DNA of 24,699 nt. Origin: a virus. Within the stretch, counting starts at the first letter, position 1, and every line of letters starts with the position of its first letter. Below, piece after piece: positions 613-23,227 of this stretch. The stretch spans positions 1 through 24,699 of the IMG/VR virus record IMGVR_UViG_3300045988_176129. One strand, given 5' to 3'. The notes under the pieces are model-generated. The model was not told where the DNA came from. It saw nothing but the letters and a program-made list of their open reading frames with translations, and ran no database searches. The translations under genes were made by a program, and so were the position numbers.

Positions 613-1730
613 GTGATTCGCTAAGTCACATGCGTTCTCTTATGAACTGCTATATATTTCTATATAGAGTAGACTATATCTTCACCCTAAGATTAGGGGC
701 CCACCACTTCCACAACCATCGCTTGTTGTGTACTCTCTTTCGAGATAGTCGTTGAACCTTCCTTTTATAAAAGGCTTGGCTGCTGATTACCTTCAACATT
801 ACTTGTAAGGCTTCCCAGCAATTCAATGGGTTTTCTGCTATTGATTACTCAATAGTGATGCTAATACACTTTTTTGTTCATCAGTTAAATTTTGATAAGA
901 TAAATAATAATCTTTATAACTTTGATTTTTTCTAATGCATTCTAATGTATTTCTACTTTTTACTCCTACAAAATTTGCCATTTCATTAAGTGGAATAATC
1001 TTGTTTTCATAATTATATAAAATTAAATGCACTTGCTGCTCAGTTAAATGTCTTTTAGACTTTATTATTGTAGAATAAGCTTTCTTTTCAATAAGATTTT
1101 GACTTTCACAAAAAATTTTATATATCTCTTGCTTTTCTTCTATTGAAAGCTTTTCATATTCTTCTTTATATTGGGAGTGATTTTCTCCTCTTTTTATTCT
1201 ACTAATAGTTGTCCTAGATACATCATATATATCTGATAATACTTGTCCAGGTCTTGACATAAACTCAAGAACAGCTAATATATTAAAAATATCTGTTTGG
1301 GTTAATTTTGAGCCTCCATTACTAGCTCCAAAATTTCCACCCTCATTTTGATTATAACCATTTCTATAACTATCATATTTTTTTATATAATATTTTTCTT
1401 TTTCTCCAATTTCCTTTTCAGTGCAATCCCCTGAAAATTCTATTGTAAAATCAAAGTTCTCAAAACCATAAATATTATACTCTTTTTGAAGAAAATGATT
1501 ATCGTGAGTGCCTCTTCTTAAATCCCCAAAATGACGACATCTTCTTCTAATTATATTATTAGTTAATCCTATATAAATTTTATGATTTATCTTATTTTCA
1601 ATTTTGTATATATAATATTGCATAATATCATCCTTTCTATTCTTTTTGATATTATACTTAAAAATAAAATACAAAAAATTGTAACGTTTTGACCAAAAAA
1701 ATTAACATATATTTGACTTTTATTTACTCT
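613..1730 (-). mobile_element. candidate group I intron carrying a GIY-YIG homing endonuclease ORF, inserted between the terminase ATPase and nuclease domains
   Basis: TerL reading frame is broken by ~1.1 kb. The HEG has its own RBS and start. About 225 nt (613-837) and ~70-110 nt (1624-1730) of non-coding flank could form the ribozyme core. Boundaries are approximate. Confidence 0.5.
838..1623 (-). CDS. GIY-YIG family homing endonuclease (I-TevI-like) with C-terminal DNA-binding region
   Basis: N-terminus MQYYIYKIENKINHKIYIGLTNN...RRRCRHF is a textbook GIY-X10-YIG motif. ATG at 1623 is preceded by AAAGGATGA SD. The six-frame track extends to a TTG at 1674. Confidence 0.85.
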   Translation of the reverse strand: MQYYIYKIENKINHKIYIGLTNNIIRRRCRHFGDLRRGTHDNHFLQKEYNIYGFENFDFTIEFSGDCTEKEIGEKEKYYIKKYDSYRNGYNQNEGGNFGASNGGSKLTQTDIFNILAVLEFMSRPGQVLSDIYDVSRTTISRIKRGENHSQYKEEYEKLSIEEKQEIYKIFCESQNLIEKKAYSTIIKSKRHLTEQQVHLILYNYENKIIPLNEMANFVGVKSRNTLECIRKNQSYKDYYLSYQNLTDEQKSVLASLLSNQ

Positions 1731-2378
1731 CTCTTCATCTATTCTTTCCCCACCTGGCAGCTTCCTAGATACATTCATCGTAGGAATAATTACCTCATTC
1801 AATAAGGTTTCATCTATTAAGATAACCTCTTCCATAAGTCCACCAGTAGCACGCTTACCACGAGAATTTTGACTTGCCGCAATAATATCAAGTTTACTTT
1901 CATTTTTAAATTTATATTCAACTTCATTCTTAGATGCTTTTGAAGCACCTCTACTCCAGTCAATTTCATTTTTAAGACCAGGAATAAGCTTGCATAATTC
2001 TTCTGCCTTTTCTCTTGCGATTCCCGCAGCTTGCTCTTTTCCGCCGGTAGTTACGAATAAATGGCTTCCAGGATACAGTATACAACGAAGCATTAGAATT
2101 AAAACTGACAGAAAGCTCTTACTATAAGCTCTTGGAAACGTAGCATACGCATATCTATGTCGCATTACACCACGTAAAAATACTCTTTGATAAAAGAAAA
2201 GATGGAAATTTTCAGGGTTATCCCCACAAAGAAAATCTACAAACATATCTGGATATTCTCGCCAATAAGCTACATATTTTCTTAAAGTAGGAATTTGTGC
2301 TTTAATTCTTTCTTCAGATAAACCAACTTTTTTACCACCAAAAGAAAGGGAGAGTTCCATTAGTTCTTGTAATGCCAA
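1731..2378 (-). CDS. terL: terminase large subunit, 5' exon (ATPase domain)
   Basis: Deviant Walker A PRAYSKS and Walker B VILIDE typical of TerL. Start is TTG at 2378 with AAGGGAG SD and overlaps the upstream stop; an alternative ATG lies at 2360. Homology ends near ...GGERIDEE (~1731). The ORF stays open to 1587 but that stretch is intronic. Confidence 0.65.
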
Positions 2379-3620: not shown

Positions 3621-4709
3621 CTATTTTTTATTCCTGCATTCCTTACAAATAGAATACCATCCATCTTTACTTCCTTTATTAGTAGAAAAGAAAAGCTTGT
3701 GAGCTAACTTTATTTCTCCACAGCGAGAACAGCGCTTCCATTTTCCATATTCTTTTTCTGTATAATACCAATTTAAAAAATCTTTTTGTGCTTGTAATGC
3801 AATAATTTTTGGGATTTTATTTCTCCAGAGACTAGATAAATATTCCATAGAATGTTTAACTCCATGGTCTACTTCTAGCTGTTTTTGAATTTCAAGATTT
3901 GACTTACCATCAATTTTGTATATAACTAAATCATAATATAAAGGATATTTTTCTTTTAATGAACTTTCAACTAAATTATCTAAATCTTCTAATAAATACC
4001 AAGAGTCTCCCCAAAATCCGCCCCATGAATCTTCTTTTAATTTAGAATAATTACACAATAGGGCAGAAATATGTTCCCAATTAAAAAATGAAATTAGCCC
4101 ATCTGAATGCGGCATACCTTCCGCATCTATACTAAGCTTTTCCCCAAAATCAATCTTTCTAAAAGATTTAATTACATTTAAACAATACATTGGTGGTTTT
4201 ATTTCATTTCTAATAACATATTGTTCTTTATACATTTCTATTAACTGTTGTTTTAATAAATATTTTTTCTTTCCTGTTTCTCTTGATATCTGCTCTTTTA
4301 CTTTATCTATAGCTTCTTTTTTTGCCCTTAGTTCAGGCATTTCTTCATAGTCTCTTGGGGTGATTTTCATTTTTGGAGTAAGAATAATATTTTTATTTTC
4401 ACTATCGGTCATCATATTAAATAACCCATCTTCCCCATTTTCAAGTTTAGAAACTAATCCTTGATAAGATGTTTCATGCTTGTTTATTGTGACTAATCTA
4501 TTGTCTGTCATTAAGTCCTTTTCTTTTTTTCTCTCTTCTCTGTCTGCCAAAAGAATATAGTCACTTAATATTGTTAAATATCTAGGTGTAAGTTTCACGG
4601 GATCGATTTCCGCGCATATTTTTTTTACTAATTCAACTCTTTCTACAGAATTAAGAGAGTAATCTAATTTAAATTCCTTTTGTTGATTATCAACATTATT
4701 TTCTTCCAT
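3621..4709 (-). CDS. hypothetical protein with C-terminal zinc ribbon (CSRCG...CKEC)
   Basis: 362-aa ORF with AAGGAG SD. First gene after the minus-strand promoter at 4759-4788. Confidence 0.65.
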   Translation of the reverse strand: MEENNVDNQQKEFKLDYSLNSVERVELVKKICAEIDPVKLTPRYLTILSDYILLADREERKKEKDLMTDNRLVTINKHETSYQGLVSKLENGEDGLFNMMTDSENKNIILTPKMKITPRDYEEMPELRAKKEAIDKVKEQISRETGKKKYLLKQQLIEMYKEQYVIRNEIKPPMYCLNVIKSFRKIDFGEKLSIDAEGMPHSDGLISFFNWEHISALLCNYSKLKEDSWGGFWGDSWYLLEDLDNLVESSLKEKYPLYYDLVIYKIDGKSNLEIQKQLEVDHGVKHSMEYLSSLWRNKIPKIIALQAQKDFLNWYYTEKEYGKWKRCSRCGEIKLAHKLFFSTNKGSKDGWYSICKECRNKK

Positions 4710-5193: not shown

Positions 5194-5472
5194 ATGTTTC
5201 AAATAATAGCTACAATTATAGTAGGATATCTTATATTGGTTGCTTGTCAGTTAGCATATCTCATTTCTGCAAAAGAAGAAGATACTTTATTTGATACTTA
5301 TAAACATGTTTTTAGTTTTAAAATTTTATATAAAGAAACAAATTTAAATGAGTTAGGAGTAATATTATATCTTTTAATACAGATAATATTGTTCCTTCCA
5401 GCTGCAGCCGCATATTTTATTTATTGGTTATGTCATAAAAAGGAGAGGTTAAATGGTTTATCAAGGAAGTAA
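5194..5472 (+). CDS. small membrane protein (2 TM)
   Basis: GGAGGG SD; hydrophobic segments. Confidence 0.55.
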   Translation: MFQIIATIIVGYLILVACQLAYLISAKEEDTLFDTYKHVFSFKILYKETNLNELGVILYLLIQIILFLPAAAAYFIYWLCHKKERLNGLSRK

Positions 5473-6175
5473 AAATAGATTAACAAAATATATTGTTCCA
5501 ATAATACAAAAGGAAATAGATGAAAATAATATAACTACGTATATAGAGCCTTTTGTTGGAGGAGCTAATGTTATTGATAAAATTAGCTGTGAAAATAGGA
5601 TTGGCTCTGATATTAATGAAGAGCTAATCTCATTATTGAGATATATTCAAAAGGATAATAATATTTCTATTGCTCCGTCAGAATGTAGTTTTGAGCATTA
5701 TGCGGAAGTTAGAGAAGCTAGAAAGTTAAAAACCGAGAAATTTTCTAAGGAATATACTGCTTTAATTGGCTTTTGTGCAAGTTATGGCGGACGCTATTTT
5801 GATGGTGGATATGGTAGAGATGCTAAAGGTGGTAGAAGTATCTATGCAGAAAGATTAAAAAATTTAAAAGAACAAGCGCCGCATTTAGATGGAATAGAAT
5901 TTAAAAGCGGAGACTATCGGCAGTATGAAAGCACGAAATTCGCATTATTTTATATGGATCCACCATATAAGGGAACTAAACAATATTCTACCAAGTTTAT
6001 AAATTATGATGAATTTTATGATTTTTGTAGGAATTTAAGTAAAAACAATATTGTTTTAATTAGTGAATATAATATGCCGCCTGATTTTAAATGTATTTGG
6101 GAGAAAGAAAGAACTGTAAAGCAAGATGTGAATAAGAAAGGAATGAAAGCAACAGAAAAGTTGTTTATGATATAA
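5453..6175 (+). CDS. dam: DNA N6-adenine methyltransferase, Dam/D12 class
   Basis: YQGSKNRL N-terminus, motif I EPFVGGANV (FxGxG), catalytic DPPY tetrad at 5947-5958. GGAGAGG SD. Overlaps the upstream ORF by 20 nt. Confidence 0.85.
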   Translation: MVYQGSKNRLTKYIVPIIQKEIDENNITTYIEPFVGGANVIDKISCENRIGSDINEELISLLRYIQKDNNISIAPSECSFEHYAEVREARKLKTEKFSKEYTALIGFCASYGGRYFDGGYGRDAKGGRSIYAERLKNLKEQAPHLDGIEFKSGDYRQYESTKFALFYMDPPYKGTKQYSTKFINYDEFYDFCRNLSKNNIVLISEYNMPPDFKCIWEKERTVKQDVNKKGMKATEKLFMI

Positions 6176-7340: not shown

Positions 7341-7622
7341 ATGGTAAAAATAGATACATCATATGGAAAATTTTCTGTTGAAAAATCAGATGGAAATATA
7401 ATAAAAGCTAAAGATATACATGAATTAATAGACATATTACTTCCAGAATCAACAGACAATCCCACGACACAAGTTGTTACATATGTAAGTGATGAGGATG
7501 CGCTTGCTGACGCAACTGATTTAACTGTATTGGCGGCATTATGTTGTTGGGGCAATCGGTTATATAAAGGAGATAACATTAAATTGACAATAACTGCGGA
7601 ATATTGTCCTGAAGATAAATGA
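7341..7622 (+). CDS. hypothetical acidic protein (93 aa)
   Basis: AAAGGAGA SD; last gene before the 1.1-kb non-coding region. Confidence 0.6.
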   Translation: MVKIDTSYGKFSVEKSDGNIIKAKDIHELIDILLPESTDNPTTQVVTYVSDEDALADATDLTVLAALCCWGNRLYKGDNIKLTITAEYCPEDK

Positions 7623-8010
7623 TTGGGGTATTAGATTGAAAATTAATTTGGAATGTATATTTTTTCCGTCTTTGTGAATTGAAAAATGATTTGGAATGTT
7701 GGTGTGGGTGCTAAACCCCTTTTCTCAGATTTAATTTTTAAAAATCCCGAAACTATACCCCCGCCTTAATATTTTTGCAACAGAGAAAAAATTCTCTGAG
7801 TATATTGCTAGTTAGGTGAAAAAATTTTGCGAGCACTGTCTGTAGCACCGACCTATCGAAGCGTTGTGAGATCATTTATTAGGCGGGCAAAGAAGATATA
7901 AAGAAGAGTTATATCAAAGATAATAAGAGATATAAAGAAATAATTTTTATATCATTTTTCTTTTGATTACATAATGCGTCGTCTCGGTGACAACGGAGCC
8001 GAGCCGATTT

Positions 8011-8160
8011 TACGTTAGTAGTTAGGCTTAACTAATTTTAGTTGCATACGGCTAACTCTAGTTAGTTCTGACTAACTCCTGTTAGGCTGAACTAACTCAG
8101 GTTCGTCTTAGCTAACCTTGGTTAGACTGAACTAACTTCTGTTAATCACCGCTAACCTCT
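8011..8160. repeat. tandem array of ~7 degenerate ~20-21-bp direct repeats (GTTAGGCTGAACTAACTCnn)
   Basis: Visible periodicity: agttaggcttaactaatttt / agttgcatacggctaactct / agttagttctgactaactcct / gttaggctgaactaactcag / gttcgtcttagctaaccttg / gttagactgaactaacttct / gttaatcaccgctaacctct. Confidence 0.65.
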
Positions 8161-8180
8161 GGGGTGGGCGGGTGGGGGAG
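8161..8180 (+). other. G-quadruplex-type G-tract (GGGGTGGGCGGGTGGGGG), copy 1 of 5
   Basis: Four or more G3-5 runs with 1-nt loops in a 30% GC background. Same relative position as the tracts at 9469, 10669, 11381 and 12786. Confidence 0.6.
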
Positions 8181-8190
8181 GCTTGGGATA

Positions 8191-8219
8191 ATTATACCAC
8201 AAATCTATCTTTTTGTCAA
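8191..8219 (-). promoter_or_regulatory. leftward extended -10 sigma-70 promoter, cassette copy 1
   Basis: rc TTGACA (8214-19), 17-nt spacer, rc TGGTATAAT (8191-99). Confidence 0.5.
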
Positions 8220-8267
8220 GTAGTAATTTTTCACAAAAATAAAAAATTTTTTTGTGCATTTTGCCTA

Positions 8268-8296
8268 TTGACATGGGCGCATTTTTGTGCTATAAT
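8268..8296 (+). promoter_or_regulatory. sigma-70 promoter with no downstream ORF (putative ~450-nt ncRNA 8303-8750)
   Basis: TTGACA 8268-73, 17-nt spacer, TGcTATAAT 8291-96. No SD/ORF before the terminator at ~8715-8752. Confidence 0.5.
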
Positions 8297-8316
8297 TAAA
8301 ATGATATTAAAATGAT

Positions 8317-8351
8317 ACTTTAGCACGTTAAAGTGTCATCACTGCAAAGCG
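8317..8351. repeat. conserved ~35-nt hairpin element (ACTTTAG-CACG-TTAAAGT + GTYATCACTGNRAAGCG), copy a
   Basis: Family also at 8527-8562, 8607-8640, 8683-8703, 9421-9456, 10628-10663, 12725-12760 and 20699-20733. The stem covaries through G-U pairs. Confidence 0.6.
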
Positions 8352-8375
8352 AAAGACTAAGTTAAAATCCGTTTA

Positions 8376-8405
8376 ATTATACCACACAGTCGTATGGTTT
8401 GTCAA
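8376..8405 (-). promoter_or_regulatory. leftward sigma-70 promoter, cassette copy 2 (faces the plus promoter at 8268 across element a)
   Basis: rc TTGACA (8400-05), 18-nt spacer, rc TATAAT (8376-81). Confidence 0.45.
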
Positions 8406-8430
8406 TAGTAAAATGCAAAAAAAATTGCAC

Positions 8431-8462
8431 AAATTTTAATTTCCCATTTTGTGCAATCTGCA
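8431..8462. promoter_or_regulatory. operator-like inverted repeat TTGCACAA-N16-TTGTGCAA
   Basis: Perfect 8-bp arms. A member of the TGCACAA motif family enriched in intergenic DNA. Confidence 0.45.
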
Positions 8463-8479
8463 CAACGAACAAGTGTTTG

Positions 8480-8690
8480 GTTAGCCTTAACTAACTGTCC
8501 AAACAAACGTTCGGTTAGGCAAGACTAACTTTAGTGCGTTAAAGTGCTATCACTTTGCAGTGAACGTGTGGTCGGTTAGGTAAGACTAACTCAAGTTAGG
8601 AGAGGCTAACTTTAGCACACTAAAGTGATGCAGTAGCAAAGAGTTAGTTAAGACTAATTTAAGTTAGTTCAGACTAACATTAACACTTTA
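8480..8690. repeat. second cluster of GTTAG..GACTAACT iteron-like repeats interleaved with three copies of the 35-nt element
   Basis: ggttagccttaactaact / cggttaggcaagactaact / cggttaggtaagactaactc / agttagttaagactaatt / agttagttcagactaac. Confidence 0.55.
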
Positions 8691-8714
8691 ATGTGTTAAA
8701 GTGTTAATACAAAA

Positions 8715-8752
8715 GAGTAGCACAAAGAACACCTGTTCTCTGTGCTTTTTTC
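8715..8752. terminator. bidirectional rho-independent terminator
   Basis: Hairpin GCACAAAGAACACC/TGTTCTCTGTGC followed by TTTTTTCTTTTAT on plus; T-rich on minus as well. Confidence 0.5.
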
Positions 8753-8754
8753 TT

Positions 8755-8880
8755 TTATTTGTTCAATGATTCAATAATCGTAAAACCTGCCATTTCCGCA
8801 TGTCTTATTTCTTCTGTTGTCATTTCTGTTTTTCCTATTGTGCTATTGTTTAATTTTACTATTACTTTTCTCATGGCCAT
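8755..8880 (-). CDS. hypothetical small protein (41 aa) on minus strand inside the early region
   Basis: AAGGAAAGG SD plus its own minus promoter (8910-8938). MAMRKVIVKLNNSTIGKTEMTTEEIRHAEMAGFTIIESLNK. Not in the track (<60 aa). Confidence 0.4.
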   Translation of the reverse strand: MAMRKVIVKLNNSTIGKTEMTTEEIRHAEMAGFTIIESLNK

Positions 8881-8909
8881 CACCAATTCCTTTCCTTATC
8901 TTTATACTA

Positions 8910-8938
8910 ATAATACATCAAAGCCAAACAAAAGTCAA
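8910..8938 (-). promoter_or_regulatory. sigma-70 promoter (minus) for the 8880->8755 gene
   Basis: rc TTGACT (8933-38), 17-nt spacer, rc TATTAT (8910-15). Divergent from the plus promoter at 8981. Confidence 0.45.
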
Positions 8939-8980
8939 TAGTTTTTTACAAAAAAAATAAAAAATATTTTTAAAAAAGTA

Positions 8981-9009
8981 TTGACAAATTGTTAGTTATC
9001 TGGTATTAT
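8981..9009 (+). promoter_or_regulatory. sigma-70 promoter
   Basis: TTGACA 8981-86, 17-nt spacer, TATTAT 9004-09. Confidence 0.5.
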
Positions 9010-9047
9010 TAGATTACAAGGTAAGGAAAGAGAGGAAAGAAACAAAA

Positions 9048-9119
9048 GTGGAGGAACTTATTCAGTGGCAAAGAGAGTTAGGTATTAGTGAGGAACAGAT
9101 AAAAATTAACATGAGGTGA
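9048..9119 (+). CDS. possible GTG-initiated micro-ORF (23 aa, MEELIQWQRELGISEEQIKINMR)
   Basis: Only ORF downstream of promoter 8981. SD AGAGAGG is 11-12 nt from the GTG, which is weak. Confidence 0.2.
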   Translation: MEELIQWQRELGISEEQIKINMR

Positions 9120-9157
9120 TAATTCAATACTAGATGATGAAATAATAAAAATAAGTG

Positions 9158-9186
9158 TTGACAAATGAAGTATTAGATGTTATAAT
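9158..9186 (+). promoter_or_regulatory. sigma-70 promoter
   Basis: TTGACA 9158-63, 17-nt spacer, TATAAT 9181-86. Confidence 0.55.
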
Positions 9187-9239
9187 AAATATATAATAAA
9201 GGAAAGGAAACCCCACCAAAGGGGTAAAGGTAAAAGATT

Positions 9240-9377
9240 ATGAAAACACCAAAAACAAGAGGATTTTATGAGTTCAAAGATGGTACAGTGGTTTGGTTTG
9301 CTGGATTAAGTGCTAGTGAGCAGAGAAAAGAGATTGCTAAGCATGGCGCAATCATAAAGTTTACACATACTAACTAA
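9240..9377 (+). CDS. hypothetical small protein (45 aa)
   Basis: Leader AAAGGAAAGG-hairpin(CCCC/GGGG)-AAAGGTAAAAGATT-ATG. MKTPKTRGFYEFKDGTVVWFAGLSASEQRKEIAKHGAIIKFTHTN. Followed by a terminator. Confidence 0.5.
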   Translation: MKTPKTRGFYEFKDGTVVWFAGLSASEQRKEIAKHGAIIKFTHTN

Positions 9378-21170: not shown

Positions 21171-21196
21171 AAGGATATAGTGTTACCTATATCCTT
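21171..21196 (-). terminator. terminator for the minus-strand gene 22005->21187
   Basis: AAGGATATAG-tgttac-CTATATCCTT overlapping the stop. The minus-strand flank is TTGTTTTGT. Confidence 0.45.
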
Positions 21197-22005
21197 AAAC
21201 TATCTACCAATTCTTTTATTGCCCCTAATTGACTTTCAATATTATTTAACTTCTCATCATAAAATAATTCTCTTCTTTGCGGAACTACATCAAACTTATA
21301 AGGGGTTGTTACCCCACCCACATTATATCTAGGTTTAAAATATTCTATAAATATCTTCTCTATATGTGCTAATTCATATCTACTAACACTTTCACTTTCA
21401 AATATAACTCTAAAAGAGATATTTTCTAACCCTATTTCATGCAGCTCTTTATACATAATATTAAAAATACCTTCTTTTATTTTATCTACATGTTCCTTAA
21501 TTCTTATAGTAATAGGTCTACAAGTCATTCCTACATATAACAAATCTTCTCCACAATAAATACCATAAATATATCCTTTATTCTTCCCATCTTCTATCTT
21601 CCCTGCATACATGCCCATCTCAATCTCTACTTCTTCTATATGTGATCTAAGCTCTTCTAAACCATCTCCATATGGAACCAAATGAGCCAACATTTTATAT
21701 ACATGCCCAATTATCATTCCATATTTTCCTCTGGGCACTATCCCCAAAGCCTTAGACAAAAGAATAGGACCAAAAGCCAATAACCAATCTCTAATGTCAT
21801 CCATTCCCTCTTTATAAACAACCTCTTTATTAGAATAATAACCAAAAGCATTCCTTAAATCTACAAAACACTTTTCTTCTTCAAAGCGGAAATGAGTGAA
21901 TCCGTACTCCTCTTGATGTTCATATAAATACTTATATACCGGAATAATATACTCCTTATTTAATATTCCACACTTACCAAAATTTACTGTTTCTACTTCT
22001 TGCAT
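21187..22005 (-). CDS. GIY-YIG domain protein with the nuclease motif in the central/C-terminal half
   Basis: KGYIYGIYCGEDLLYVGMTCRPITIRIKEHV matches GIY-X10-YVG...R...E. The N-terminal 140 aa are unrecognised. Confidence 0.55.
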   Translation of the reverse strand: MQEVETVNFGKCGILNKEYIIPVYKYLYEHQEEYGFTHFRFEEEKCFVDLRNAFGYYSNKEVVYKEGMDDIRDWLLAFGPILLSKALGIVPRGKYGMIIGHVYKMLAHLVPYGDGLEELRSHIEEVEIEMGMYAGKIEDGKNKGYIYGIYCGEDLLYVGMTCRPITIRIKEHVDKIKEGIFNIMYKELHEIGLENISFRVIFESESVSRYELAHIEKIFIEYFKPRYNVGGVTTPYKFDVVPQRRELFYDEKLNNIESQLGAIKELVDSLRI

Positions 22006-22083
22006 CTTATAATCTCCTTTAAAATTATTGTCGGTTTTTCTAAGAAAAATTTTTCGTGAATTGGAGAAGCGAAGCTTCGTAAA

Positions 22084-22363
22084 TTCCGAAAATTTTTCGG
22101 AATATATATATAGAAAAATAAACTGAAAGATTTTCTGAGGATTTTCCGAAGAATTTATTTAATTTTCCGAATTTTTTCTGAAAATTCATTAGATTCTTCG
22201 GAAAAATACTTAATTTTCCGAAATTTTTCTGAAAAAAATTCATTTAATTTTCCGAATTTTTTCTTAATAATTTTCCGAAAAATTTTAATACCCCTATTAA
22301 AATTTAAAAGCCCCTATTTGAACTTTTTCCGGAAATTTTTCTTTTTCAAAAGAATTTTCCGAA
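22084..22363. repeat. array of about 10 TTCCGAA/TTCTGAA-centred palindromes resembling CodY boxes (AATTTTCWGAAAATT)
   Basis: Examples: AATTTTCCGAATTTT, TTTTTTCTGAAAATT (13/15), AATTTTCCGAAATTT (13/15), AATTCCGAAAATTTTTCGGAA, TTTTTCCGGAAATTTTT. Spacing ~22-35 bp. Lies in the 290-bp gap upstream of the 22005 gene start and runs into the 3' end of the next ORF. Confidence 0.6.
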
Positions 22364-22731
22364 TACTCCCCCCTATTTTTCCAACCTGGCTGTTCATAAA
22401 TAGCCTTCTTTTTTTTCTCATCCCAGCCATTTAATTTTGCGATAGTAGGCGCATTATACCCCTCCCCCGCCATTTTCTTTATTATTTCTTGTTCTTCTTC
22501 TGTAAAAATACCAGGTCTTCCAACTTTCTTATATTTTTTATTCATATTATCTATTTGACTTTTGATAGAATTAAAATACCCTTGAACATATCTACTATCA
22601 GTAAGAGCAACTTCTTCCCCATATAAAGCATAAATATTAATTCTATAATTTAATTCTGCAAACTCTTCTACTTTCATGGTATCTTTTACATCATCAAGCC
22701 ATTTTTTTTGTATAGGAAAACTATTTGACAT
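22297..22731 (-). CDS. hypothetical protein with Hin/resolvase-type C-terminal HTH (GRPGIFTEEEQEIIKKMAGEGYNAPTIAKLNGW)
   Basis: 144-aa ORF. Confidence 0.55.
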   Translation of the reverse strand: MSNSFPIQKKWLDDVKDTMKVEEFAELNYRINIYALYGEEVALTDSRYVQGYFNSIKSQIDNMNKKYKKVGRPGIFTEEEQEIIKKMAGEGYNAPTIAKLNGWDEKKKKAIYEQPGWKNRGEYSENSFEKEKFPEKVQIGAFKF

Positions 22732-22733
22732 AA

Positions 22734-22922
22734 TTACTCCTTTCCACGAATCCTCTTAAAATCTTCGTTAAAAGTTTCATCATTTTCAAATATCCACATA
22801 ATTTTATCTTTATAACGCGGATTATCTTGTGTCATAAAAATACTATGTCCCATCCGCACTAATTCCATAGCATAATCAAGCTTATAAATCATTATATACT
22901 TTGGTTCTGTTCTGTTCTGCAC
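22734..22922 (-). CDS. hypothetical protein (62 aa, GTG start)
   Basis: AAGGAG SD 9 nt before the GTG at 22922. Confidence 0.45.
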   Translation of the reverse strand: MQNRTEPKYIMIYKLDYAMELVRMGHSIFMTQDNPRYKDKIMWIFENDETFNEDFKRIRGKE

Positions 22923-22928
22923 TTGCGT

Positions 22929-23087
22929 TTACTCCTTATATTTTATTTCATAATTTGCGGACTTGCCATATCCAATCTTCGTAATAGCAATGCCCTTTTT
23001 TGCGTAAGTCTCTTGTGTTCGTTTAAAGTTTTGTTTAATTGTACTTTCTTTTATTTTTAATTCTTTTGCTAACTCACTAAGAGTCAA
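22929..23087 (-). CDS. small HTH DNA-binding protein (52 aa, TTG start), Xis/AlpA-like regulator
   Basis: GGAGGTG SD 7 nt before the TTG. (M)TLSELAKELKIKESTIKQNFKRTQETYAKKGIAITKIGYGKSANYEIKYKE. Not in the track. Confidence 0.4.
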   Translation of the reverse strand: MTLSELAKELKIKESTIKQNFKRTQETYAKKGIAITKIGYGKSANYEIKYKE

Positions 23088-23156: not shown

Positions 23157-23190
23157 CAAAAAAAATAAGGGGCAAGCCCCTCAAAGAAAC
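23157..23190 (-). terminator. rho-independent terminator for the minus gene 23623->23228
   Basis: Minus strand reads GAGGGGCTTGCCCCTTA then TTTTTTTTGG. Confidence 0.55.
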
Positions 23191-23227
23191 CTACCCCCTA
23201 ATCATTACTAGATCCATTAATCAACCC

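Follow-up and report, generated by a model that had tools for sequence, protein, structure and literature searches.

The viral sequence analysed here, positions 1 to 24,699 of IMG/VR record IMGVR_UViG_3300045988_176129 (the window, 24.7 kb), contains at 22084-22363 a dense array of short repeats lying between two minus-strand genes. The array forms the 3' portion of a cassette conserved among gut phages, and comparison of related sequences provides good support for reading it as a cognate binding array. The proposed binder is the 144-amino-acid (aa) product of the adjoining open reading frame (ORF) at 22297-22731 (minus strand), in which a DUF6291 N-domain precedes a resolvase-type helix-turn-helix (HTH) domain. 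The fuller proposal, that the repeats are iterons for this phage-encoded protein and form an origin-type nucleoprotein site with an embedded promoter, has in our judgement about an even chance of being correct. The initial annotation had described the region as some ten palindromes resembling the box recognised by the host regulator CodY, and had offered origin iterons, or a binding array for the adjacent HTH proteins, as an alternative. Comparative evidence favours that alternative, with the protein encoded at 22297-22731 as the partner.

The array is described here on the minus strand, which is the coding strand for the flanking ORFs. The gap between the ORFs at 21187-22005 and 22297-22731 measures 291 bp and is densely repetitive, and approximately 70 bp of the array sits within the 3' end of the latter ORF; from that point, about 13 repeat copies extend over 280 bp. 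The 9-mer TTTTCCGAA occurs in seven exact copies in the window, all of them within 22142-22363, against an expectation of 0.42, and a count of seven was reached in none of 100 shuffles. Allowing one mismatch, 16 of the 19 window sites for TTCGGAAAA fall in 22084-22363. The dense array reported for this gap of roughly 290 bp is therefore real, and the confinement of its motif to one locus in 24.7 kb fits a single cis site rather than a dispersed regulon or promoter motif. The palindromic character first ascribed to its units did not hold up, as they are mostly same-orientation repeats of 9-13 nt and not 15-bp palindromes. The main iterons (22131-22363, minus strand) comprise about 11 copies in all, counting TTCGGAAAA(TTAA) and its variants TTCAGAAAA, TCCGGAAAA and CTCAGAAAA. 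The unit reads aTTCGGAAAATTAA, often with the TTCAGAAAA variant 11 nt upstream, and a single copy, at 22197-22205, is inverted. Measured from start to start, copies are 11, 19-23 or more nt apart, phasing near 10.75 bp is weakly favoured, and the repeat cores are unchanged in six close relatives.

Three copies of a secondary repeat, AATAGGGG, lie at 22291-22298, 22311-22318 and 22370-22377 (minus strand; overall 22279-22377). Two of them form a 20-bp tandem, AATAGGGG(T/C)(A/T)TTAAAATTTT, on the 5' side of the array, and the repeat may be a site for another cassette protein. Similar (T/A)AGGGGC repeats come after the array in one of the related lineages described below (L135, 850-880).

Several other identities for the repeats were considered and set aside. 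A terminator-like call at 22197-22222 (plus strand) is a by-product of two inverted iterons, and the Rfam matches in the array were only sub-threshold miRNA-like hairpins caused by inverted repeats. The PurBox, AWWWCCGAACWWT, was dropped as the repeats read CCGAA(T/A/G) and not CCGAAC. No DnaA boxes were found in the array. The exact composite unit had no match in a scan of viral contigs, and the loci with three spaced copies of TTTTCCGAA, at least 119 in number, are unrelated, the 9-mer there being part of differing units in tandem repeats, iterons and operators; none of them encodes a DUF6291 homologue.

The protein proposed to bind the array matches Pfam DUF6291 at its N-terminus (E 8.5e-7; 29.5 bits against a cutoff of 27.2), beyond which lie a GRPG segment and an HTH of three helices. 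A profile built from 12 members of the family and searched against the PDB recovered the DNA-binding domain of gamma-delta/Tn3 resolvase (E 1e-4 to 9e-4, residues ~61-116), and this match covers the GR(P/K) arm. HTH_7 was detected in three of the 12 members (best E 1.2e-4), and HTH_38 also matched among them. The catalytic Resolvase domain had no match in the protein or its family, and an identity as a serine recombinase was thereby ruled out. An AlphaFold2 model built from seven sequences (pLDDT 70) comprises an N-domain of three helices, then a flexible linker, the HTH and finally a tail disordered from residue 125 (pLDDT <50); a single-sequence model was poor. The tail residues encoded by array DNA are ~122-144, in which SEN and FPEK are the iteron read in frame. 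Most of the distant homologues stop no more than some 10 residues from query residue 121, so that the array-overlapping section of the ORF codes for a non-conserved tail. The family is small, with 17 representatives at E ≤1e-3 among 1.8 billion proteins, two of which are long and unrelated. Many of its members end, after the non-conserved tail, in aromatic-x-Phe (FKF, WEF, FNF, FTF, FSF) or Phe (DAF); the window protein, P0016, P0019, P0014, P0018 and P0017 make up this set, and the motif could dock a partner protein.

The cassette has the order small winged-HTH (wHTH) or ribbon-helix-helix (RHH) gene, 62-aa gene, 144-aa gene, array, (TA)n/-10-like element, tiered hairpin and variable cargo. 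It starts after a strong intrinsic terminator (23166-23200, minus strand; 16-pair stem plus T-run) that closes the genes upstream. These upstream genes differ among the window and its close relatives L120 and L122, which indicates that the unit behaves as a cassette. TATAAT at 23118-23113, with TTGTTT 16 nt upstream, is likely the cassette promoter; it was read by eye, and the scan made no call there. The first gene (22929-23087, minus strand; TTG start, MTLSELAKELKIKESTIKQNF...) encodes a 52-aa winged-HTH-like protein with weak HTH matches. Homologues of it are found in lineages L141, L134 and L133, and in L129, L131 and L132 the position is occupied instead by an RHH/DUF6290 protein. The second gene (22734-22922, minus strand) encodes a conserved 62-aa protein of unknown function with the aligned pattern ..IYxxxYAxELxxxGH....NP....WxF... 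A gene of about this size is present in every lineage whose contig includes the position. Homology was checked in six (L129, L130, L133, L134, L140 and L141, in each case directly upstream of the DUF6291 gene), and the 62-65 aa genes of L143-L145 are matched by size and position and were not aligned.

The strongest evidence for a cognate pair comes from comparing the window with nine further lineages, whose proteins are 28-44% identical to the window protein (values that vary with the alignment method). Each of the ten lineages has its own short-repeat array, which begins at the 3' end of the DUF6291-HTH gene or slightly within it, at the head of 180-960 bp without a called ORF. Phased short repeats beside a candidate binder gene, a feature of iteron origins, are present in the window, and this layout occurs in all ten lineages. 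The motifs represented are TTCGGAAAA, TTCCGGAAA, AACGGAAT, TTTTCCTAAAA, TTACGAAAA, CTACAAAT, AAGAGTA and TTCTGAGAA. The L129 array (protein P0016, 34-40% identity) contains about 20 copies of AAAAATTCGGAAAAC / TTCCGAAAA, with ATTCGGA occurring 17 times, and that of L135 (P0018, 36-39%) is built on TTTCCGGAAAT, with 14 occurrences of TCCGGAA. L140/141 (P0005, 43%) combines AAAACGGAATT with AAAACAGAAT and TTAGGAAAA; L143 (P0006, 44%) has 11 copies of TTTTCCTAAAAT and some of TTCCGAAAA; L144 (P0013, 35%) has 11 of AATTACGAAAA; and the repeats of L145 (P0017, 38%) are of TTCTGAGAA type. Finally, L130 (P0012, 30-34%) carries ACTACAAAT, with seven occurrences of CTACAAA, and L133 and L134 (P0019 and P0014, 28-33%) carry AAGAGTATT, accompanied in L133 by TCTGGAAAA. 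The top 7-mer counts of the lineage arrays range from 3 to 17 against shuffle maxima of 3-5; the longer arrays exceed their shuffles by a wide margin, and support is marginal in L133 (4 versus 4) and the truncated L134 (3 versus 3).

The array motif follows the protein clade. A CGGAA core is common to the arrays of the window protein and of P0016, P0018 and P0005, which are 39-44% identical to it (TTCGGAAAA, TTCGGAAAA, TTCCGGAAA and AACGGAAT, respectively), and AAGAGTA is common to P0019 and P0014, which are 55% identical to each other. P0012 is paired with CTACAAAT, P0013 with TTACGAAAA and P0017 with TTCTGAGAA. We therefore propose that protein and iteron form a cognate pair. Further, L129 retains the motif of the window, yet its first gene encodes an RHH protein instead of the wHTH protein, making the DUF6291-HTH protein the likeliest binder, ahead of the first gene product.

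Relatives of the cassette span phages using the standard code, phages reading TAG as Gln and, apparently, phages reading TGA as Trp (at least two genetic codes), indicating that the cassette crosses genetic-code boundaries. In-frame TAG is read as sense in L130 (241-1889; 6 and 16 in-frame TAGs) and L145 (1380-1760), and L133 (2395-2643) apparently reads TGA as sense. L129 also has, at 1400-1670 and within its ~960 bp of non-coding DNA, a second array after the iterons that is cytosine-free and has a 10-bp period (GAGAAAGTAT / TAGAAAATGG). A near-identity DNA search of phages, a tblastn search of phages with the 144-aa and 272-aa proteins and a search of plasmids with P0016 gave no match, and a related-locus search in viral, genome and metagenome collections gave no confirmed relatives.

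The same comparison bears on the resemblance to CodY boxes, which is statistically genuine. Eight of the 16 window matches to the 15-bp consensus AATTTTCWGAAAATT at ≤3 mismatches lie in the array. Under a local first-order Markov model, seven CodY-like 15-mers were observed against 0.83 expected at this stringency, and three against 0.15 at ≤2 mismatches. The boxes quoted in the initial annotation as matching at 12-13 of 15 positions were all located, TTTTTTCTGAAAATT at 22172 and AATTTTCCGAAATTT at 22212 (13/15 each) and AATTTTCCGAATTTT at 22161 and 22246 (12/15 each), and the best score, 13/15, is reached by three boxes in the array. Host CodY binding to these boxes would tie the downstream gene to GTP and branched-chain amino acid status, or the array might titrate CodY. 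The consensus is that of low-GC Firmicutes, a group that possesses CodY, and the nearest recognisable relatives of this phage, distant at the protein level, infect Firmicutes (Enterococcus, Lactococcus, Bacillus). Like the CodY box clusters of these bacteria, the array presents a TTTTC-N-GAAAA core in A/T-rich DNA, with several boxes overlapping at an 11-bp offset. Its copies nevertheless differ in being mostly direct, half-palindromic and C/G-centred: the central W of the consensus is C or G in all seven exact TTTTCCGAA copies, which fit only one CodY half-site well. The best box loses one match, dropping to 12/15, in six near-identical relatives (TTCAGAAAA to TCCAGAAAA), and no box at ≤2 mismatches is present elsewhere in the window outside the array, a further point against CodY.

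The orthologous arrays behind diverged neighbour genes carry non-CodY motifs (CTACAAAT, AAGAGTA, TTACGAAAA, TTTTCCTAAAA and TTCTGAGAA). At ≤3 mismatches, the L130 array has no CodY-like 15-mer and that of L133 has one against 0.17 expected, which is background level. Co-variation of the motif with the adjacent phage protein is unexpected for the site of a host factor, and in a conservation test for CodY regulon membership the site was not kept in the orthologous arrays. CodY is therefore unlikely to be the cognate factor, and regulation by it or its titration by the array appears very improbable, although CodY might still cross-bind the DNA in vitro. The resemblance follows from the TTC-N-GAAAA core in A/T-rich DNA, and cautions that a statistically real enrichment of a host-factor consensus can stem from an unrelated, phage-encoded specificity.

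At its 3' end the array gives way to a set of elements that also recur among the lineages. An A/T-rich stretch of 22 bp with a single G:C pair (22101-22122, minus strand) contains a (TA)5 run and TATATT at 22106-22101. It could be a -10-like element, an easily melted element or both, and could equally be only a -10; a sigma-70 scan with a 9/12 cutoff made no call for it. Immediately downstream, in an operator-like position, the array is closed by a perfect 9+1+9 palindrome, TTCCGAAAA-T-TTTTCGGAA (22084-22102), consisting of two inverted iterons. TA-rich runs or TATAAT occupy the equivalent place in L130, L133, L135, L140 and L143, and in L135 TTGACA-17-TAGTAT lies inside the array, with iterons in the spacer and just downstream.

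Overlapping the palindrome is a tiered hairpin or inverted repeat (22044-22098, minus strand; dG -17.7, z -4.0), with an outer A/U stem of iteron sequence, a middle stem and, at 22066-22078, the apical GAAGC-TTC-GCTTC, a short G+C stem with a 3-nt loop. The same tiered architecture is found with different sequence in L129 (GAACC-TGC-GGTTC, z -4.9) and L140 (GAGC-TTC-GCTC, z -5.4), and L133 has a simpler hairpin (z -5.1) in which an 11-bp stem carries the same tip. The window contains GCTTCGC a single time, at the tip of its own hairpin on the minus strand, and the heptamer recurs in the equivalent position in L133 (~2350), L140 (~1020) and L144 (~2125). By this comparison, the conserved unit is the three genes with the array, TA run and hairpin.

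These elements also suit the main rival to an origin-type site, namely transcriptional control without any role in replication, which we regard as possible and distinctly less probable. The DUF6291-HTH protein would polymerise on the array, by itself or together with the wHTH/RHH and 62-aa proteins, and repress or activate a 3'-end promoter of the cargo gene, with the hairpin acting as a 5' leader or stabiliser. Consistent with this, the array immediately precedes a co-oriented gene that has a good ribosome-binding site in the window, L130, L133, L140, L143, L144 and L145. The L135 promoter-like element has sites in its spacer and just downstream, the window's inverted iteron pair immediately follows TATATT, and the putative leader folds into a stable hairpin. 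However, the 10-20 sites over 280-400 bp far exceed the needs of an ordinary operator, no scan-level sigma-70 promoter is present in the window, and the homology of the N-domain points to replication initiators. The gene supposedly regulated is not conserved, and it is missing from L129 and L135, in which the array is succeeded by 580-960 bp of non-coding DNA. A cis-acting element fits better than a dedicated regulator of one gene, given that array, TA run and hairpin persist across lineages whose cargo varies or is missing.

The cargo gene of the window (21187-22005, minus strand) encodes a 272-aa protein described initially as containing a GIY-YIG domain. That label is weak. The motifs IYGIY, YVG, R..EH, E and N are visible in its C-terminal region (IYGIY..LLYVGMT..R..EH...E...PRYN), there is a weak match to phrog_5123 (E 2.4e-4), and the protein is 34% identical over 104 aa to the product of the gene after the L130 array (E 1e-8); the Pfam GIY-YIG model, on the other hand, gave no match, even with E allowed up to 1-10. 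P0021, a metagenomic protein of 208 aa that contains a complete RF-1 (peptide release factor) domain (E 4e-43), shows 81% identity to 28% of the 272-aa protein, suggesting a fusion or recombinant neighbour. The cargo slot contains a short GIY-YIG ORF in L145, an unrelated 157-aa gene in L140 and other small genes in L143 and L144. The GIY-YIG-like domain is C-terminal in the window and L130 and of a short N-terminal form in L145, and the nuclease gene has the look of cargo, perhaps inserted more than once as a homing-endonuclease gene. This pattern suggests that the region of the GCTTCGC hairpin is a recurrent landing site for GIY-YIG homing endonucleases.

The recurrence of GIY-YIG-type genes after the array in three lineages (window, L130 and L145) could alternatively mean that the DUF6291-HTH protein recruits a nuclease, such as this neighbour, or the packaging machinery to a DNA-processing site other than an initiation site, whether pac-like, end-generating, homing-related or centromere-like. 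Short-repeat arrays of a similar kind occur in the P1 pac site and in parC of plasmid R1, the aromatic-x-Phe tail of many family proteins could dock such a partner, and the sequence-conserved GCTTCGC tip could be a cleavage or target site. We nonetheless consider this unlikely: the GIY-YIG genes differ in architecture and are absent in most lineages, resembling repeated invasion by homing genes, and no partition NTPase is encoded nearby. The terminase large-subunit gene is some 20 kb away in another block, and for this reason a small terminase (TerS)/pac reading was set aside.

The case for an origin-type site rests on the company kept by DUF6291. A canonical DUF6291 domain (E 1e-26) forms the N-terminus of a 234-aa Riemerella phage protein with a Phg_2220_C C-domain, which matches the PHROGs annotations 'primosomal protein', 'replication initiation' and 'O-like' and whose gene follows Erf/YqaJ and precedes a DnaB-like helicase gene. 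A second DUF6291-headed protein of this type is encoded by a fecal phage downstream of YqaJ and RusA genes, and in both cases the DUF6291-coding part is directly followed by short tandem DNA repeats. The Phg_2220_C domain also forms the C-terminal part of Rep_3 plasmid initiators and of a phage replication protein (PMC4490491, PMC7924643). Further, gp38 of SPP1 binds direct repeats within its own gene, beside an A/T-rich unwinding element (PMC6316719). Since DUF6291 heads an initiator-like protein, SPP1 offers a precedent and the cargo is variable, an origin-type site is favoured.

The locus resembles lambda ori and SPP1 oriL as iteron origins with an attached initiator gene. As in SPP1 oriL/gp38 and the phage O-type initiators with their ori repeats, short lineage-specific direct repeats overlap the 3' part of a small DNA-binding-protein gene and adjoin an A/T-rich stretch, here a putative melting element (PMC6316719), and the O-like/primosomal-type phage protein encoded beside a DnaB-like helicase gene shares its DUF6291 N-domain with the window protein. 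Unlike these systems, the window protein has only 144 aa, a resolvase-type HTH replaces the helicase- or loader-recruiting C-domain, and no helicase or loader gene lies next to the cassette. The cassette also adds the wHTH/RHH gene, the 62-aa gene, the promoter-like element and the tiered hairpin.

In the mechanism we propose, each copy would offer a specific CGGAA-type pentamer beside an A/T tract, to be read in the manner of gamma-delta resolvase and Hin, by a recognition helix together with a GRP arm lying in the minor groove. The arm of resolvase/Hin domains (e.g. 1GDT) lies in the minor groove and the helix in the major groove, and the transfer of this mode of reading to the 144-aa protein is made by analogy. 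Two features are shared with the gamma-delta/Tn3 resolvase and Hin systems, a three-helix HTH behind a GR(P/K) arm (profile E 1e-4) and a specific pentamer flanked by an A/T tract. The window protein differs from those enzymes in having DUF6291 at its N-terminus and no serine-recombinase catalytic domain, and the array differs from resolvase crossover sites, which are paired half-sites, in presenting many sites in phase. With copies on roughly one face of the DNA (11, 21-23 bp spacing), the protein may coat ~280 bp cooperatively via its helical N-domain. The resulting nucleoprotein complex would stand directly upstream of the TA-run/-10-like element, the inverted iteron pair and the conserved hairpin. 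The whole would be a candidate replication origin, whose embedded promoter would fire through the hairpin and also drive any downstream cargo gene, here that of the GIY-YIG-like nuclease. ParR-parC of plasmid R1 is similar in having about ten iterons at ~11-bp phasing, a small cooperative binder and an embedded promoter. It is unlike the present locus in that the window has no partition NTPase gene, its proposed binder is of a different fold and it belongs to a large phage in which an intron splits the terminase gene.

Several observations weigh against an origin. No C-domain of the kind that recruits a helicase or loader, such as Phg_2220_C, is present in the 144-aa protein, and no helicase, primase or polymerase gene was recognised beside the cassette or elsewhere among the window ORFs scanned. 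The link to initiators is through the DUF6291 N-domain alone, just above threshold (29.5 versus 27.2 bits), and neither PHROGs nor a Foldseek search of the PDB with the seven-sequence model gave anything significant for the protein itself. The 62-aa protein is equally conserved and may be an alternative binder. The array is located near a point of transcription convergence, at the maximum of cumulative GC skew, and so not where skew logic would place an origin, and a second large repeat array, in the ORF-free 1.6 kb at 7622-9240, is an alternative origin candidate. Most of the comparison contigs are short (1-6 kb) metagenomic fragments. Finally, the promoter-like elements and operator-like sites, as in L135, fit plain transcriptional control equally well; the origin and transcriptional readings are not mutually exclusive.

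The window as a whole has a GC range of 26-41%, and its recognisable proteins have only remote counterparts in large siphoviruses of Firmicutes (Enterococcus EF1-like, Lactococcus 949-like and Bacillus phages, and gut phage Phass-1). Gut metagenomes yielded near-identical fragments. The terminase large-subunit gene is interrupted by a group I intron (Rfam RF00028, 94.7 bits; loci 650-911, 838-1674 and 1587-2378, minus strand) carrying a GIY-YIG homing endonuclease ORF (Pfam GIY-YIG, E 8e-10), and its 5' exon is at 1587-2378 (minus strand; phrog_2/phrog_9). Two genes upstream and on the same strand, 3621-4709 encodes a 362-aa protein matching phrog_5767 'sigma factor' (E 5e-43) with a C-terminal HNH/endonuclease-VII-like finger. 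A D12-class N6-adenine DNA methyltransferase (Pfam E 1.5e-20) is encoded at 5453-6175 (plus strand) among small plus-strand genes. The 1.6 kb at 7622-9240 have no credible ORFs and contain two clusters of GTTAG...CTAAC inverted repeats with a 20-nt period (8020-8150 and 8470-8680), surrounding several consensus sigma-70-type promoters (~8269-8297, 8980 and 9158). This array, different from the main one, could be an early control region or an alternative origin. A tRNA scan of the window found nothing.

More speculatively, and with considerable doubt on our part, the wHTH/RHH, 62-aa and DUF6291-HTH genes with the array, promoter and GCTTCGC hairpin may together make up an undescribed, self-contained and portable origin, or origin-like cis-acting, module of gut phages. 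Such a module would move across genetic codes, with a private protein-iteron specificity in each lineage and a conserved 3' end serving as a recurrent landing site for GIY-YIG homing genes. DUF6291 found no mention in the literature searched, and if the proposed pairing is correct, sequence-specific iteron binding would be the first function for this uncharacterised family. The compact cis/trans module would likewise flag sites that may be origins or control elements in large gut phages whose annotation is poor, recoded ones included. The diverged protein-motif pairs form a natural system for specificity change in resolvase-type HTH domains, and could supply orthogonal DNA-binding parts.

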